UHGV virus genome: UHGV-0103843
Source: a virus
DNA: 21,182 bases
Strand: one strand, 5' to 3'
This document shows, in pieces, positions 1 to 20,545 of this stretch. The position numbers and the translations under genes were made by a program. Position 1 is the stretch's first letter, and every line of letters starts with the position of its first letter. The notes beneath the pieces were generated by a model. It was not told the origin of the DNA. It saw only the letters and a list, made by a program, of their open reading frames with translations, and searched no databases.

Positions 1-228
1 GTTATATACAGGATACCCGCCAGCGTTAATGATGATTGGCTGTGCAACAGGAACGAGAGAACCGTCTTCGTTTTCCACATAAACCTGAATCCGGTTTTCA
101 GGATTTACCGGGTCAGTGTCAATTTTCCCGATATAAATTTTTCCATTGGCTACGGCTTTAAAAGAACGAGCCATAGTGAAGAGTTGCGAAGGCATCGATA
201 CGATCACATTGGCTGTAATGTCTGTCAT
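1..228 (-). CDS. 9: Tailspike protein, N-terminal head-binding domain (partial; the 3' end of the gene lies beyond the window start)
   Basis: Minus-strand ATG at 228-226 preceded by GGAG. Translation [57 protein letters not shown]... matches the conserved N-terminus of P22-family tailspikes as I remember it. Lies directly downstream of ant, as in P22. Confidence 0.9.
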
Positions 229-284
229 TTAATTTGCTCCAGATACAAGGAAACGTCGCTGAGTGGCTACGGTGAATTTTGGGC

Positions 285-310
285 ATAAAAAAACCCAGCC
301 GAAGCTGGGT
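285..310 (-). terminator. Intrinsic terminator downstream of ant
   Basis: Minus strand reads ACCCAGCTTCGGCTGGG followed by TTTTTTTAT: a 6-bp GC stem, 4-nt loop and U-run, 20 nt after the ant stop. Confidence 0.7.
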
Positions 311-328
311 CGTTGCGTTGGTTATCTG

Positions 329-1207
329 TCAGTAGTTATGTACTGAAGGAGGTAATTCTTTATTCTTGAGTCTCATCCATGCGGAAAGATTCGTTGGTCC
401 ATCTGGCTCATTAATATCAACATCTCGTGTGTGGTTTATTAAAACGTCTCTCGCCATTCCGATAACATACGAGAATTCATGACCGTAGTCGTAGCATCTG
501 CCGGAATAGTTCGATTGAATTTGTTTTAATGCCGGATACAGTTCGCGGAATAATGCCTGTGAGCGGTTGGCATAATCCCATAACCATACAAGGCTGTTTT
601 CTTCTTTTGCAGAAAGCTCGTTGGTTTTCTTCTCTTGTTTGCCGATGAACTCACCTTCAAGCACTACCCTGTGGATGTACTCTACGGCCAGCGGGATTTG
701 TTCAATTGAAAGTTCATCAATGCTGTCAATACCAAAACGCTGATGAACCATATTGTATGCATCGTCATAGCGAAGTCCTTTCTTTCCTACCAGCATGTTT
801 ACTGCATCGCGTAGCGGCGTTCTTTCCTCAACAGTGGTTTTCTTGCCTTTCACATACTCGCCATGTTTGCGAATTGAAGGTAGAACTTCTGCTGTTACCC
901 ACTTGCGGAATTTGTGCGGGACCGAACCTTTATTGACAGCATCGCGGCAGCGCAGAACCAATGTATACATACCTGATTCGCTAACAATGCTTAGATTCTG
1001 CTCACCACCAAGGGTGTAACTTAAAGTTACTCCCTTTTCATCGTCATCAAGTGCAGTAAGCGCCTTGCGTGAGTTAGTCAGGGTTAAAGCATCACAAACA
1101 TCTTTTGCTACAAACCACGGCTCACCGCATTTGTTGATGACGCGGATTTCACTGTCGCCGAATTTGAAGATGGTGAAATCGTTTTGTGCCTTTGCTATAC
1201 TTTTCAT
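329..1207 (-). CDS. ant: Antirepressor Ant
   Basis: Translation from the internal Met [43 protein letters not shown]... matches P22 Ant as remembered. Start moved from the track start (1273) to the ATG at 1207, which has an AGGAAA ribosome-binding site. Position downstream of arc as in immI. Confidence 0.85.
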
Positions 1208-1275
1208 GTCAATATTTCCTAATCCGATTTGTTGATACCGAAGCCCTGACTGTTCCCGCAGTTGGGGCTTCAACT
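1208..1275 (+). ncRNA. sar: Candidate sar-like antisense RNA covering the ant ribosome-binding site and the arc-ant spacer
   Basis: Plus-strand extended -10 TGCTATACT at 1193-1201 inside the 5' end of ant, pointing opposite to ant. The 68-nt arc-ant spacer contains an inverted repeat GAAGCCC...GGGCTTC (about 1241-1272). P22 is known to make a 68-69 nt sar RNA from this position. Ends are not mapped. Confidence 0.4.
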
Positions 1276-1437
1276 TTACGCGCCAATGCGCCCTTCCTTC
1301 TTAAAGCTTTCCATTACTCTCTGATAAATCTCAGAGTTAACAGACCGACCATTCTCTTCCGCCACCTTGCGTACCAAATCCAATACTTCTTTAGGCCACC
1401 GCAAATTGAACTGCGGCATCTTGCTCATTCCTTTCAT
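1276..1437 (-). CDS. arc: Arc repressor (ribbon-helix-helix)
   Basis: 53-aa product [53 protein letters not shown], essentially the P22 Arc sequence. The track ORF extends upstream across the operator; the real start is the ATG at 1437. Confidence 0.95.
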
Positions 1438-1453
1438 ATTCACCTCACAATAT

Positions 1454-1470
1454 AGGTCCACGGTGGACCT
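1454..1470. promoter_or_regulatory. Mnt operator
   Basis: Perfect 17-bp palindrome AGGTCCACGGTGGACCT, the known P22 Mnt operator sequence, placed at the Pant transcription start. Confidence 0.85.
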
Positions 1471-1476
1471 ATTGAG

Positions 1477-1505
1477 AATATAGTAGAGTGCTTCTATCAT
1501 GTCAA
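1477..1505 (-). promoter_or_regulatory. Pant promoter for arc-ant (overlaps the divergent Pmnt)
   Basis: Minus strand has -35 TTGACA (1505-1500), a 17-bp spacer, and -10 TATATT (1482-1477). On the plus strand a divergent TTGAGA-17-TATCAT fits Pmnt upstream of mnt. Confidence 0.7.
1480..1500. promoter_or_regulatory. Arc operator
   Basis: Minus strand reads ATGATAGAAGCACTCTACTAT, the 21-bp P22 Arc operator, lying between the -35 and -10 of Pant. Confidence 0.85.
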
Positions 1506-1527
1506 TACACTAACTTGGAGTGATGGC

Positions 1528-1779
1528 ATGGCTAGAGATGATCCGCACTTTAACTTCCGTATGCCTATGGAAGTAAGGGAGAAATTAAAATTCAGGGCGA
1601 AGGCGAATGGGAGATCAATGAACTCCGAGTTGTTACAAATCGTCCAAGATGCTCTATCAAAACCATCGCCTGTGACTGGATATCGCGACGATGCAGAACG
1701 ACTCGCTGATGAGCAGTCAGAGCTTGTTAAGAAGATGGTGTTTGATACGCTGAAGTATTTGTACAAAAAACCCACCTGA
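1528..1779 (+). CDS. mnt: Mnt repressor (ribbon-helix-helix)
   Basis: 83-aa product MARDDPHFNFRMPMEVREKLKFRAKANGRSMNSELLQIVQDALSKPSPVTGYRDDAERLADEQSELVKK... matches P22 Mnt as remembered. GGAG 7 nt upstream of the ATG. Divergent from arc, as in immI. Confidence 0.95.
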   Translation: MARDDPHFNFRMPMEVREKLKFRAKANGRSMNSELLQIVQDALSKPSPVTGYRDDAERLADEQSELVKKMVFDTLKYLYKKPT

Positions 1780-1795
1780 AGGTGGGTCCTATTTA
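1765..1795. terminator. Bidirectional intrinsic terminator between the convergent mnt and lipoprotein genes
   Basis: AAAAAACCCACCTGAAGGTGGGTCCTATTTATT: a 6-bp GC stem with a 4-nt loop that contains the mnt stop codon, A-run on one side and T-rich tract on the other. Confidence 0.65.
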
Positions 1796-2215
1796 TTAGT
1801 CTTGCTTTGTTGATGGTATAAGAGATGCGTTTGCCTCTTTTGGCTTCAAGGTATACATCCCACCATTAAAAGGATCTACAGCAAGCCAACCAATTAACCC
1901 ACCAAACACAAGGTTTCCACCAATATACCAACCATTAGCATTGGCTTTGATTGGCAGGGTAACTGGTTCGTACCCATCCTTTTCCATAGTGATCTGGTAG
2001 CTCTTTTTGCCAAAATAACTACCATCTGACTTGGCAAGAGTTACTCCTTGCGGGGTCTTGCCTTGCGCAACAATCACGCCTGATTCGTCTTTTACTTTAA
2101 AGCTCGCACCGGAAGGATTGCTGTTCACTTGCACGAGCTGTGTTTCGTCACCAACAATAGTTGCGCACCCAGATAACAATATAGCGCCAGCAACAACGCC
2201 GATAATCCTCTTCAT
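1796..2215 (-). CDS. Predicted lipoprotein (candidate superinfection-exclusion or accessory protein)
   Basis: From the internal Met the product begins MKRIIGVVAGAILLSGC: a positive n-region, hydrophobic core and lipobox LSGC. Gly-rich C-terminal segment GGNLVFGGLIGWLAVDPFNGG. Sits between gene 16 and immI, where P22 carries sieA. Confidence 0.6.
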   Translation of the reverse strand: MKRIIGVVAGAILLSGCATIVGDETQLVQVNSNPSGASFKVKDESGVIVAQGKTPQGVTLAKSDGSYFGKKSYQITMEKDGYEPVTLPIKANANGWYIGGNLVFGGLIGWLAVDPFNGGMYTLKPKEANASLIPSTKQD

Positions 2216-2333
2216 ATCAATTTCCATATTTGAAAAAACCGGAAACATCCTAATGACAAACCATTCAAATGTGAAGTAGGCAAAAGATGTTTACTTTTTT
2301 CATGGTATCCTGCTCAAAACTAAGGAGGTTGGT

Positions 2334-2657
2334 GTGTATACAACAGTTATCGTGATAGCTATCGCACTCATTGTGGTTCAGTACCAACTGGCATCTTTAA
2401 AACAAAAGATATCTGACCTCAAGACTGAGAACGAAGCACTTAAAAACTCAATAAAAGATGAGAAGAACAAACTATCATTCACTATATCTGATATTGAGCA
2501 ATCCATTGAAATTATTGAGAATAATATTAACAGACTAAAAAAAGAAGATATTCATGAAATCAATGACAATATCAAGGATTTGAAATCTTGGCTTAGGAAT
2601 GTAGGACAAATCGCCACATCAACACGAGATAAGCTCAATCCATCCATGGATGATTAA
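2334..2657 (+). CDS. Small single-pass membrane protein with a long coiled-coil (hypothetical)
   Basis: GTG start 5 nt after a perfect AAGGAGG. N-terminal hydrophobic helix YTTVIVIAIALIVVQY, then a K/E/N/I-rich heptad-like region. Markedly AT-rich compared with its neighbours. Divergent from the lipoprotein gene. Confidence 0.55.
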   Translation: MYTTVIVIAIALIVVQYQLASLKQKISDLKTENEALKNSIKDEKNKLSFTISDIEQSIEIIENNINRLKKEDIHEINDNIKDLKSWLRNVGQIATSTRDKLNPSMDD

Positions 2658-4784
2658 TTACTCCTGTGCTATTCCGCTTAGCGACGCTACAATGCCAGCC
2701 CTCGCTAAGCGATTGAACTCTTCGTTTCCAACTGCATCACGTATTGCTTTTACGGCGGCTTTATTTGCCATAAATCTGCGTTCCGCCGCCGCTAATGCTT
2801 CTTTACTTCCGCCAGCTCTTACTGCTTTCGTGGCTTCCTGAACTGCTTTCTCTATCGCATATCGACCGCTACGCGTGGTGGCAATTTTAGATACAGCACC
2901 TTTTAACCCGGCGCCAACTAAAGCACCTGCGGCCGCGCCTGCAATGCCCCCACCTGCTCCACCAACAATGGCACCCGACGTTGAGTTTGCAATTGCATTT
3001 AATACTGTTGAGGTAACGTTGGATAAACCAGCGTCAAGATCACGTAGAACATTGGCTGTTCTCCCTGTTCTTTCAATATACTGCTGAGGCTTCACTGCCG
3101 CTCTTGCAAGAGTGCCATATGCATCAGCAATTCTTCCAAGTTCTGAGGAATATCTGCTAATGGCTTTTACATTTTGTGGGGTAAGTATCCCTGCGATATG
3201 GTTAATTCCTGCTGCATCAGATTTGCCACCACGTACACCATGCGAGATAGCATCCTGCAACATTGATGATATAGCAGGAACACGCTCTGATTCTGGCAGC
3301 GCGCGGATCATAGAATGGAATCCAGCAGGACCATTAAGACCTTTAGCTGACGATGATTGAAGAGATTTTACTCCATTCGTAATCAGTGCATCTGTTGCCA
3401 AATCACGCCCAAAAACAGACTCTGCACTCTCTTGTGCGGATAGCCTCGCTTTAGACAGATCATTAGCTTTTTGCCAGTCATCAAGAAATCCGCCGTTTTC
3501 CGCCATTGTGCGCATATCATCAGTAATTGCCCGGCGTATTTCCCCTGCTCTCCTTGCCGCATTTGCCTCTCCGCTACGCTTATATTTTTGCTCAGCATCA
3601 GCAAATTTCGCTCTCCATGCTTTCATGCCATCAAATGTTACTCCACCTTGATTGTTTGCCTGAACAAACTGTTTCATTTCAGGAGTAAGCGGTATGCCAG
3701 CAGATCGCTCTGCCTGAATAACGGCATTACCATTTAGCATTCTTGCTTTTTGATTTGGCATTGTTGACCGCACGTCATCCCATGCCGCGCGCTCGGCATC
3801 CTTCATCTGATCAAGATTTTGAAGAATCCTTTGTTTTATAGCCGCACTTTTTTCTGATGCCGTTCCAGATGCGGCCCCAAATTCATCAAGGTTTCGACTT
3901 AACTTTGATGATATTTCGTTAAATGCTGCCTGATGGGCATCCTGAACAATTCCTGGTGTTGATGCCAATGCGCCTTCGGCTTGTGCAATTCCACGACTTC
4001 CAGATCGCATTCCTGGTGTTAATGCGTTTATATCAATTCCAGCAGACTCAGCCGCTTTTGCTACATCTTCGGACACATTAGCGGCCTGACTGGCAATTGA
4101 CTGACGCCCAGCACCTGACTTTGCCATCCTGGAAACATCATTAGCAGAATTCAGTGCTGCACCACCAAGAGCCTGTGAAACTCTTGGCGCAATAACGCGC
4201 CCGACACCTGAAAGAACGCCTTGAGCACCAATATTGATACCACCGTTAATGGCAGCATTTTGTGCAAAGTCGCCCTCCTGATTTGCAGCATCAGCAAGAG
4301 AACCTGCAATCATGTTTCCTGCGGAACCGATATCTCCAGCGAGCTTTGCTGTCGCTCCAACAGCTTTTGCCGCTGTGCCAATTGGCAGGAGATACCCACC
4401 AATTGTTTCACCGGCTTGTGCGTAAGGGTCTGTCGGTCGATCGACAGGGCGATAAACATCATCCAAAACCTTGGGGCCACCAAGCCCCTGACTGATTGCA
4501 TTAATCAGACTTGCGCCACCCTGCAATACGTCAAATGGTATGTTTACCAGACCACGACCAGCCTGTTCTGCAATTTGCCCTGCACTTTGACCACCAGTGA
4601 GCCAATCGCCAGCTTGTTGCATCAATGATGGTTCTTCCCGTGTTGGTGCATTATTGGCCTGATTAACTGTTTGTTGCTGAACAGCCTGACCAGCAAAATA
4701 CTCATCAATGGCGGTGCCAATATCTTCGGTGCTCGTACCATCAGGAAAGGTAAATGTCTTACCGTTTGCAGTTACTTTCATCAT
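2658..4784 (-). CDS. 16: Ejection (internal virion) protein, gp16 homolog
   Basis: 708-aa Gly/Ala-rich protein in the gp7-gp20-gp16 position. Its start overlaps the gp20 stop as ATGA. Confidence 0.8.
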
Positions 4785-17221: not shown

Positions 17222-17710
17222 TTATTTCCCTTCTGCTTGCTTCCCAGTGGTGAACGAATCAACGCTGCCGCCGGAATAGCAGTCAAGATCAATTGCGACT
17301 TGTACCGCTTCTCTCGCATTTTTGCCACAGTGCATGGCAGTGCGAGCAATCAGCCCACCACTACCAATGGCGTATGGTTCAACCTGTGGCGAAATACTCG
17401 CCCGCGTTTCGCCTTTCTCTTTTGAGATGATGTAAGCACGACCAGCACCGATGATAGCAAGCGCTGTGAAAGAGAATGTCGGGAGAAATTCTGATGCATA
17501 CGTCAGGTTGTTCTTAAGCAGTTCCTGCAATTCCATCTCCGCGCCGCAATCACCAGAACAACCTAATGCAACCACTTTACTGCCGCAAACCTCCCACCCA
17601 GATTCTGGCGGTGTGTAAATCTTTTGTTCTGTATACGAACACACAACATCACCAGATGTTGCCTGGGTGTCAGATGCCAGGGTCTTTCCATCCCATGCAA
17701 TAGTGGTCAT
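17222..17710 (-). CDS. HslV-like / proteasome beta-type Ntn-hydrolase peptidase (phage cargo)
   Basis: 162 aa beginning [21 protein letters not shown] (Thr exposed after Met removal), an internal Lys near position 30, and the motif [12 protein letters not shown]. Pattern resembles HslV as remembered. Stop lies 5 nt before the gene 3 start. Confidence 0.6.
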
Positions 17711-17711
17711 A

Positions 17712-17954
17712 TCATGCTCCGGTGGTGAACAGGTCTAACGCTTCCTTCGATTTACGCACCGCTTCGATAGTGCGGGTCGTGATATCTGAATTAGCGCCGC
17801 CTGACTGGAAGTGAATTTTAAATAGCTCAAGCTTCAGCTCGTCAGTGCCAATGAATTGAAATGCTTCCTCTGCGGCTGCGTTCTGGTTCATGACCAGTTT
17901 GTAAATCTCTAACTGGAATTTCTGTTCTTCAGTCATGGGAATAATCTCTGCCAT
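17712..17954 (-). CDS. Small hypothetical protein translationally coupled to the HslV-like gene
   Basis: 80 aa, GGAG ribosome-binding site. Its stop TGA is 1 nt from the ATG of the peptidase gene. Confidence 0.5.
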   Translation of the reverse strand: MAEIIPMTEEQKFQLEIYKLVMNQNAAAEEAFQFIGTDELKLELFKIHFQSGGANSDITTRTIEAVRKSKEALDLFTTGA

Positions 17955-18057
17955 TGTTGGCTCCGTTTATCCGTTAAAAGGGATATCAGTTAATTTATCC
18001 CGTGTAGGGTATAAGCCATTATCAAAGCCACTCTGTAGGGAATGGCTTTTGTAATAA

Positions 18058-18419
18058 CTACTGTTCGCTTAGCTTCTGCTTCAGCAAGTAACCTTCCAGC
18101 ATCCAGATTTTATTCACCGCATTTTCGCGGGCGATCTTACGCCCGATCTCCTGGTCAAAGTTCTCCGGGCTGGCGCACGCAGACTCGCCGGTTACGGTAA
18201 AGCCGTTCTCCAGCACAAGAACGCAGAAGGTCAGCAGTTCGAGTGATTGCGGGCCGGTTCAGGCTCTTCCTGCTTCAGCCACAACGGTGAGCTGCGATAT
18301 CCGTCCGCGCCGGTAAAGTAAAACTCGCCTGAGATAACAGCTTCAATGCGTTCCGGGGTAACACGCGCGGCCGTTTTGCCTTTCTCAACGATTTCTTTTT
18401 CGATTTGCTGTTCGTTCAT
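18058..18419 (-). pseudogene. Frameshifted hypothetical phage gene
   Basis: Reading frame opens at the ATG at 18419 (MNEQQIEKEIVEKGKTAARVTPERIEAVISGEFYFTGADG...) and hits a stop at 18231. A different frame continues with clean coding character (LLTFCVLVLENGFTVTGESACASPENFDQEIGRKIARENAVNKIWMLEGYLLKQKLSEQ) to a stop at 18058. Confidence 0.45.
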
Positions 18420-18701
18420 AATTATGACCCTGTGGAGTGGTTGCTTGATTAGGATGTCTTTCCATCAGTCCGCCACCACAAAGAATCTTTTTTGCCATAA
18501 GGCAGGAGGTTCATCTTTCAGTGGCTGCCAGTGTTATTTCCCCACTTACTGGCTTGGGTTGCTTCGTGGCACTGCCGTAACTGGTGGTGCACAGATTTAG
18601 TTAAATCTGTTCTCGCCTGAACTATCTTTTACATACCCGGATTGTGGGGTGTAAATCACGGTTTCATTATCAAGCCCACCCGTAGATGTGCTTTGGAATG
18701 G

Positions 18702-18902
18702 CTACTGGCGGTCATTATGCTCGTAACGAGATACCGTCTTCCCGTTCTGGTTCATCACGTAGGCGACCTCGCCAGGTTTCAGGAATACATTTTTGTCCAT
18801 TCCCGATACCGCGATGCTCTGCTGCCCCGGATTGAACCCTACACTCAACCCGCAATGAATCTCTTCACCGCCACCTGGCGACATTACTTTTACTGTTAAC
18901 AT
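18702..18902 (-). CDS. Small hypothetical protein
   Basis: 66 aa with a strong AGGAGAAG ribosome-binding site, just downstream of the post-Rz terminator. Confidence 0.5.
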   Translation of the reverse strand: MLTVKVMSPGGGEEIHCGLSVGFNPGQQSIAVSGMDKNVFLKPGEVAYVMNQNGKTVSRYEHNDRQ

Positions 18903-18926
18903 GCTTCTTCTCCTGCTTCTTCTGGG

Positions 18927-18953
18927 AATAAAAAAGCCCGACAGAAGTCAGGC
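18927..18953 (-). terminator. Intrinsic terminator after the lysis cassette
   Basis: Minus strand GCCTGAC-TTCT-GTCGGGC (7-bp stem including one G-U pair) followed by TTTTTTATT, about 20 nt after the Rz stop. Confidence 0.55.
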
Positions 18954-18973
18954 TCTGTTATTTGGGTGACGAA

Positions 18974-20389: not shown

Positions 20390-20465
20390 TGGTGCCGGTT
20401 AACGGATTTGAACCGCTACCTATTCACTTACAAGGCGACCGCTCTACCATTGGAGCTAAACCAGC
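20390..20465 (-). tRNA. tRNA-Thr (anticodon UGU)-like, phage-encoded
   Basis: 76 nt folded by hand: 7-bp acceptor stem with one G-U pair, D-stem GCUC/GAGC with the GG loop, anticodon loop CUUGUAA (U33, UGU, A37), T-arm AGCGG-UUCAAAU-CCGUU, discriminator A and encoded CCA. The anticodon stem has one mismatch. Confidence 0.55.
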
Positions 20466-20470
20466 ATGTT

Positions 20471-20545
20471 TGGCGGGACAGCGTGGACTCGAACCACGAT
20501 AAGAAGGTTAACAGCCTTCCGTAATGACCTTTATACGACTGACCC
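20471..20545 (-). tRNA. tRNA-Asn (anticodon GUU)-like, phage-encoded, atypical D-arm
   Basis: 75 nt folded by hand: anticodon stem GAAGG/CCUUC, loop CUGUUAA, T-arm CGUGG-UUCGAGU-CCACG, discriminator G and CCA as in E. coli tRNA-Asn. Acceptor stem has one U-U mismatch and the D-stem is weak, so it may be degenerate. Confidence 0.5.

Follow-up and report, generated by a model that had tools for sequence, protein, structure and literature searches.

A P22-type immI module with a mosaic antirepressor gene, apparently complete, in UHGV virus genome UHGV-0103843

Identity of the immI Module

The stretch analysed here, one strand of 21,182 nucleotides (nt) from UHGV virus genome UHGV-0103843 (the window), carries what we judge with high confidence, from sequence comparison, to be a complete and probably functional copy of the immunity I (immI) module of phage P22, with the antirepressor gene ant, the repressor genes arc and mnt, their operators and promoters, and the antisense RNA sar. 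The module comprises positions 1173–1779 together with ant at 329–1207, and reading along positions 1–3000 the order is the tailspike start, a terminator, an open reading frame (ORF) of 292 amino acids (aa), an ORF of 53 aa and an ORF of 83 aa. The element hosting it is a P22-like E. coli phage or prophage. This is an already known system in its known arrangement, a correct but ordinary finding; immI and sar have stood in textbooks since the 1980s. Within the module, the ant gene is the only real departure from P22.

The identification is carried by homology to the annotated regions of P22 (BK000583, also NC_002371) and phage epsilon34 (EU570103). When positions 1150–1800 were compared with phage genomes by megablast, epsilon34 matched at 96.1%, and P22 and many P22-like Salmonella phages at 95.2%; these identities cover about 600 base pairs (bp), positions 1192–1787/1800, and every match begins at position 1192. 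Between 1192 and 1540, the alignment with the immI regions of P22 and epsilon34 contains no insertions or deletions at 95–96% identity, and positions 1463–1540, spanning the Arc operator and both the Pant and Pmnt promoters, are identical to P22. Throughout this gap-free alignment the window coordinate equals the P22 locus coordinate minus 309, and through this constant 309-base offset every annotated P22 immI feature maps straight onto the window. Such homology is far beyond chance, and it carries the weight rather than a generic promoter scan, which alone stayed at chance level (5 consensus sites against 4.7 expected). The gene order, the orientation and the position between the ejection-protein genes and the tailspike gene are also those of P22, and the placement in an “ant moron” fits the layout published for such phages (PMC2629481).

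A sequence-only reading of the window had proposed a complete immI control region at 1193–1530 and a regulatory circuit that looked intact. All the elements that it named (the Mnt and Arc repressors, the operators, three promoters and sar) were found where it had placed them, and the intact ORFs, together with the transfer of all P22 immI features at the 309-base offset, agree with a circuit that appears intact at the level of sequence. The left boundary does not stand, since position 1193 cuts off the −35 element of the sar promoter (GTGAAA, 1173–1178). The alignment with P22 immI that it proposed as a check was gap-free, with an identical Arc operator and an Mnt operator differing only at the central base pair.

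The ORFs of ant, arc and mnt are full-length, and a ribosome-binding site can be recognised for each. The arc gene (1437–1276, minus strand), located directly upstream of ant on the same strand in one operon, encodes a ribbon-helix-helix repressor of 53 aa (Pfam Arc, PF03869, E = 1e-30) that shares 52 of its 53 residues with P22 Arc, the sole substitution being R16K. The mnt gene (1528–1779, plus strand) encodes a protein of 83 aa with an Arc-like N-terminal domain (PF03869) and the Mnt C-terminal tetramerisation domain (PF11423), both above the Pfam cut-offs. It is identical to P22 Mnt at 79 of 83 residues; the substitutions are E25K, N54D, D77Y and T82P, and residues 1–24, which hold the N-terminal beta-strand, carry none.

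The ant gene (1207–329, minus strand) encodes an antirepressor of 292 aa, with its start ATG at 1207–1205 and a Shine–Dalgarno sequence, AGGAA, at 1220–1216. Over its C-terminal 171 aa the protein shares 85% identity with P22 Ant, whereas the N-terminal 121 aa are unrelated to P22 Ant, a Bro-N domain (residues 20–110, Pfam) standing in place of P22_AR_N ahead of the shared P22_AR_C domain (residues 192–264). The Bro-N part of the gene has DNA matches of 80–90% in many Stx-converting phages. A longer ant ORF of 314 aa, beginning at the TTG at 1273, was rejected in favour of the ATG at 1207, because this ATG is conserved, has its own Shine–Dalgarno sequence and agrees with the P22 start and with RefSeq, which chose it in a 99.8% identical E. 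coli prophage. The TTG start is the one used in the annotation of E. coli phage vB_EcoP_Kapi1 (Kapi1, MT813197), where ant (1530–2474 of the locus examined, 314 aa) is read through the sar terminator hairpin; for the Kapi1 gene too, the conserved ATG with its own Shine–Dalgarno sequence is the more likely start.

Operators and Divergent Promoters between arc and mnt

Aligned to the P22 annotation, the Mnt operator (both strands) is the 17-bp palindrome AGGTCCAC-G-GTGGACCT at 1454–1470, centred on G1462; the operator as annotated in P22 maps to about 1454–1476, with the 17-bp core at 1454–1470. Its half-sites are identical to those of P22, but the P22 operator has C, not G, at its centre. A further difference, T instead of the P22 C at position 1453, lengthens the palindrome to 21 bp, perfect over 1452–1472. 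Related loci, defined as those carrying a P22-type arc among the matches listed, numbered 50; the central base is G in 17 of them, including the window, and C in 28, and the exact 29-bp operator segment of the window (1450–1478) occurs 13 times. The central-base difference is thus a common natural polymorphism. The operator lies just 3' of the Pant −10 element, over the predicted Pant start, and abuts the −35 element of Pmnt.

The Arc operator (1480–1500, both strands) is a 21-bp sequence, ATAGTAGAGTGCTTCTATCAT, 100% identical to the operator annotated in P22, which fills the spacer of Pant and covers the −10 element of Pmnt. The 59-bp segment that holds it (1472–1530) is unchanged in 40 of the 50 related loci. 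Pant (1505–1477, minus strand) consists of a −35 element TTGACA (1505–1500), a 17-bp spacer and a −10 element TATATT (1482–1477), with 11 of 12 consensus positions matched; it is identical to P22, where it is annotated, and would direct arc and ant. The divergent Pmnt (1472–1500, plus strand), likewise identical to P22, is formed by TTGAGA (1472–1477), a 17-bp spacer and TATCAT (1495–1500), matching the consensus at 10 of 12 positions. The 17-bp Mnt palindrome, the 21-bp Arc operator set between a consensus −35 and a near-consensus −10 of Pant, and the divergent Pmnt had all been picked out by the sequence-only reading, and the comparison with P22 bears out each of them.

Another promoter-like site on the minus strand (1478–1449: TTCTCA, 18-bp spacer, TATATT; 9 of 12 matches) was rejected as a chance-level match, and also because its start would fall inside the arc Shine–Dalgarno sequence. 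Its −10-like TATATT is created by the C-to-T difference from P22 at 1453, and its spacer is the Mnt operator; the T allele at this position is the commoner one among the related loci.

The sar Antisense RNA

The sar gene (1208–1277, plus strand, about 70 nt) was mapped from P22 sar (1517–1586 of the P22 locus). The sequence matches the Rfam family RF00262 at 1209–1275 on the plus strand over the entire model (1–68 of 68), with 71.6 bits against a gathering score of 43 and E = 2e-13. In antisense orientation it abuts the ant ATG (1205–1207) and spans the ant Shine–Dalgarno sequence (1216–1220) and the arc–ant spacer, and the overlap of its 3' end with the arc stop codon is exactly that of P22. 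The sequence-only reading had put forward an antisense RNA across the ant ribosome-binding site as a candidate; the full-length Rfam match above the gathering score and the conserved extended −10 element support a stronger call than that, on sequence grounds. The start of sar relative to the ant ATG, its length, its terminator stem and the −10 element with TG of its promoter are the same as in P22.

The predicted fold consists of two hairpins, with a minimum free energy (MFE) of −29.7 kcal/mol and z = −7.3 against shuffled sequences. In the 5' stem-loop (1208–1236), nucleotides 1208–1214 pair with 1230–1236, and the loop displays the anti-Shine–Dalgarno sequence UUCCU (1216–1220), the complement of the ant AGGAA. 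The second hairpin is the sar terminator annotated in P22 (1240–1277), with a GC-rich stem of 14 bp (1240–1253/1258–1271), the loop UCCC and the tail CAACUUU; it is identical to that of epsilon34, including the loop, and differs from that of P22 by one loop base.

The two halves of sar differ in their relation to P22. Rightwards from position 1238, identity to P22 is about 97–98%, whereas only 14 of 32 bases are shared in the ant leader and sar 5' half (1208–1239), where the fold is nevertheless kept. Identity returns in a short island at 1192–1209 (TTGCTATACTxTTCATGT), which contains the −10 element and TG of the sar promoter and ant codons 1–5, and is lost to the left of 1192. The exchange for Bro-N at the N-terminus of Ant explains the diverged leader and sar 5' half. 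Neither this mosaic nor the accompanying change in sar had been mentioned in the earlier reading. The exact 70-nt sar of the window was found at 17 loci, the window itself included, among the matches listed.

Conservation of the sar Promoter across ant Types

The sar promoter, Psar (1173–1201, plus strand; 1482–1510 of the P22 locus), is composed of the −35 element GTGAAA (1173–1178), a 17-bp spacer, TG at 1193–1194 and the −10 element TATACT (1196–1201), giving 9 of 12 consensus matches plus the TG. It lies inside ant codons 3–12, with the extended −10 element TGcTATACT (1193–1201) inside codons 3–5. This opposite-strand extended −10 at the 5' end of ant had been noticed before the comparison was made and proves collinear with P22 Psar. 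Its absence from P22-like immI regions had been named as part of the grounds for giving up the antisense RNA; it is conserved.

For a broader comparison, IMG/VR was scanned for the sar terminator hairpin, which gave at least 119 loci, anchored on the ant start codon. The segment from −60 to +12 occurs in 26 distinct versions, which fall into 8 groups with ant codons 6–20 less than 70% identical. Among the matches listed, T−12, A−11, T−7 and G−14 of Psar are kept in all 8 groups and T−15 in 7 of the 8, and a [G/T]TG at −35 to −33 is retained, with G−33 in 8 of 8 groups and T−34 in 7 of 8. The variable positions are the n of TGn and the discriminator, which corresponds to ant codon 2. Psar is weakened in two minority types, namely Emek, where the −10 element reads TAAGCT, and a single locus that has CGcTACAAT. 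The comparison favours selection on Psar as a promoter across eight unrelated ant 5' ends, because changes occur only at sites where promoters tolerate them, the TG of the −35 region is kept within unrelated coding sequence, and the isoleucine codon used is the rare ATA.

The fold of the sar 5' half was followed across the same diversity. All 11 distinct 5' halves, folded sequence by sequence, form a helix starting from nucleotide 1 and present a pyrimidine-rich anti-Shine–Dalgarno sequence in the loop. Per-sequence folding anchored on the ant start codon was used instead of a MAFFT/RNAalifold alignment of 14 sar variants, as that alignment misaligned several 5' halves and gave “broken” pairs; RNAalifold showed compensatory double changes in 4 of the 6 pairs of the 5' stem. 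Shuffle tests on single 32-nt 5' halves were weak (MFE p = 0.0005 to 0.10), and the fold is persuasive only by its consistency across the 11 types, which are not fully independent.

Predicted Regulatory Circuit and Alternative Explanations

The immI mechanism of P22 is that described by Susskind, Sauer, McClure and colleagues, as cited in PMC2629481. By analogy, on infection Pant would transcribe arc and then ant from the minus strand, and Arc dimers would bind 1480–1500 and turn off both Pant and Pmnt shortly afterwards. In the lysogen, Mnt made from Pmnt may bind 1454–1470 over the Pant start, keeping ant silent and favouring its own promoter. As a third layer, sar transcribed from the promoter inside ant would be expected to pair with the ribosome-binding region of the ant messenger RNA (mRNA) and block translation of residual transcripts. 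The same mechanism is reportedly found in the work of Liao et al. in 1987, Wu et al. in 1987 and Vershon et al. in 1985 and 1987. A literature search on convergent transcription from Psar and Pant found nothing relevant.

Several points weigh against this account. The −35 element of Psar is weak, with 4 of 6 consensus positions, and that of P22 Psar has 3 of 6. The Psar −10 element also encodes Ser-Ile-Ala of Ant (codons 3–5) and sits at a recurrent mosaic junction, and the conservation of Psar could derive partly from shared ancestry or recombination, the lineages not being independent. In addition, the N-terminal domain of Ant has been exchanged for Bro-N, and the primary immunity region is located outside the window. 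Finally, mnt was not expressed in RNA-seq of a Kapi1 lysogen (PMC12922286), although the arc/mnt allele of Kapi1 differs from that of the window; this result is a warning that not every E. coli relative need follow the rules of P22.

One alternative is that the sar-like segment is not an expressed regulator, the hairpin at 1240–1271 being an RNA-stability or spacer element of the arc–ant transcript or a recombination linker, and TGcTATACT being kept for the Ant sequence M-x-S-I-A and as a mosaic junction. Consistent with it, homology to P22 ends exactly at 1192, at the −10 element, both in phages and in E. coli prophages with other ant types (query position 43), so that the conserved island coincides with a recurrent recombination boundary, and the codons AGT-ATA-[G/T]CA are kept in all variants. 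Against this alternative, variation falls at positions that a promoter tolerates, being confined to the n of TGn and the discriminator, with none at −12, −11, −7 or −14, and otherwise unrelated coding sequences retain, 17 bp ahead of the −10 hexamer, the [G/T]TG at −35 to −33. ATA is the rarest isoleucine codon in enterobacteria, and its use here fits a constraint acting on nucleotides. The diverged sar 5' half also still folds into the same hairpin with the anti-Shine–Dalgarno sequence in its loop. Moreover, experiments have detected the homologous RNA of P22 (Liao et al. 1987, as cited in PMC2629481), and P22 sar reads are present in PMC13397905. We therefore regard this alternative as improbable.

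Less probable still, and very unlikely, is a second alternative, in which a defective prophage carries the module in a state of decay and the circuit only looks intact. Degraded ant morons do occur in several P22-like phages (PMC2629481), and the Emek type combines the poor −10 element TAAGCT with an ant annotated as possibly defective. In the window, however, the three genes run to full length behind recognisable ribosome-binding sites, and the operators and promoters show no change from P22. The same arrangement recurs in 56 E. coli RefSeq records whose identity is 99% or more, and the late operon around the module is complete, with a Q-like antiterminator, lysis, terminase and ejection genes and the tailspike.

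Relatives in Phages and E. coli Prophages and Proposed Exchange of sar Cassettes

The best database match of the arc–mnt block is the ant moron of epsilon34 (EU570103, genes 14–18 with an annotated sar; 96.1%). Downstream of mnt, epsilon34 and the window share the same two genes and, beyond them, a 708-aa ejection protein that is again of one type. In the window, epsilon34-like genes 15 and 14 replace sieA, orf59a and hkcC of P22. The difference from epsilon34 lies in the Ant N-terminus and the sar 5' half, both of which are P22-type in that phage.

Kapi1, in turn, has the same Bro-N/P22_AR_C ant, with 97.5% identity over positions 300–1277 of the window, and its sar variant differs by one base, in the 5' loop. 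Homology to Kapi1 stops at the arc stop codon, beyond which that phage carries another Arc/Mnt allele, and with it other operators. This comparison indicates that the module is a mosaic, joined at two places, the sar terminator and the Psar −10 element. These joints are near-invariant, different ant N-termini joining at 1192, in the island 1192–1209, and different arc/mnt alleles joining at the sar terminator (1240–1277), as in Kapi1, Emek and about 70 of 120 loci among the matches listed.

The arrangement is frequent in E. coli. Positions 1150–1800 were matched in 853 of 5,426 complete E. coli genomes, with a single match covering at least 80% of the query in 123 of them and a best identity of 99.8%. 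Among the E. coli RefSeq records, the best listed cover the whole 651-bp query at 98.6–99.8%. A prophage of E. coli strain HCP6S3_I2 is 99.8% identical across 1150–1800, and ant, arc and mnt have the same boundaries as here in the RefSeq E. coli prophage. The complete Arc/Mnt operator set of Salmonella phage P22 thus circulates unchanged in E. coli prophages, together with a different antirepressor N-terminal domain. An annotation of sar is absent from the records of Kapi1 (MT813197) and of the HCP6S3_I2 prophage (RefSeq), and sar is not mentioned in the published Kapi1 work found, including PMC12922286. As these records mark neither sar nor the operators, the coordinates given here can be transferred to the E. 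coli copies.

The sar 5' half and the ant leader occur as interchangeable cassettes that keep the fold and the promoter, which is the only mildly new point of the analysis; at least 8 distinct ant-leader cassettes were found, all refolding into the same hairpin. A further proposal, plausible but tentative and on balance somewhat doubtful, is that sar falls into distinct specificity types, each moving together with the 5' end of ant, as a swappable cassette of about 30 nt between the terminator hairpin and the island of the −10 element and codons 1–5. With 14 of 32 bases shared, the sar of the window would be a poor pairing partner for the ribosome-binding site on ant mRNA of the P22 type. If the proposal holds, co-resident or superinfecting P22-like phages would be insulated from one another at the RNA level, a form of antisense-RNA heteroimmunity. 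In that case the conserved flanks on either side would serve as joints at which ant N-terminal domains and arc/mnt alleles are swapped by recombination. Cassette variation in the sar 5' half thereby raises a small, testable question about antisense specificity among P22-like phages.

Genomic Context of the Module

The module is bounded by two terminator-like structures. After ant, an intrinsic terminator was found by the terminator scan at 311–292 (minus strand), with the stem GACCCAGC/GCTGGGTT followed by a T run, at the same position as the ant terminator of P22 and epsilon34; the tailspike gene follows, starting at an ATG at about 237 (minus strand) and encoding a P22-type head-binding N-terminus. 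At the other end, the scan identified a hairpin overlapping the mnt stop codon (1770–1787, both strands), where a terminator is also annotated in epsilon34. It is likely a two-way terminator whose minus-strand T run serves the convergent gene at 2215–1796. This gp15-like gene (1796–2215, minus strand) encodes a likely lipoprotein with a weak PEGA-like match, called “peptidase associated/transthyretin-like domain” in RefSeq, and the adjoining gp14/hkcB-like gene (2334–2657, plus strand) encodes a membrane-anchored coiled-coil protein.

The window as a whole is a syntenic P22-like (Lederbergvirus-type) late operon, in the order Q-type antiterminator, two tRNAs, holin/lysozyme/Rz, gp3-type small terminase, large terminase, portal and related head genes, injectosome proteins, ant moron and tailspike. 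Across about 60% of its length it shares about 95% identity with the E. coli phages Dewey and Louie; for epsilon34 and the P22-type Salmonella phages the identity is about 83–85%. The earlier statement of a difference from P22 in the structural genes fits only in part: the operon is syntenic with that of P22, and identity to P22-type Salmonella phages is about 83% over about 58% of the length.

A stretch of about 1.2 kb (17712–18970) that separates the Rz gene from the ORF preceding the small terminase gene holds only short ORFs of at most 85 aa, on both strands; the corresponding region of P22 contains small uncharacterised genes. A 162-aa ORF at 17222–17710 gave no Pfam match. The two tRNA genes, tRNA-Thr(UGU) at 20390–20465 and tRNA-Asn(GUU) at 20471–20545, both on the minus strand, lie in the late-operon leader between the Q-type antiterminator gene (21127–20609) and the holin gene (about 20278–19877), a placement reminiscent of Stx phages, in which tRNA clusters lie downstream of Q.

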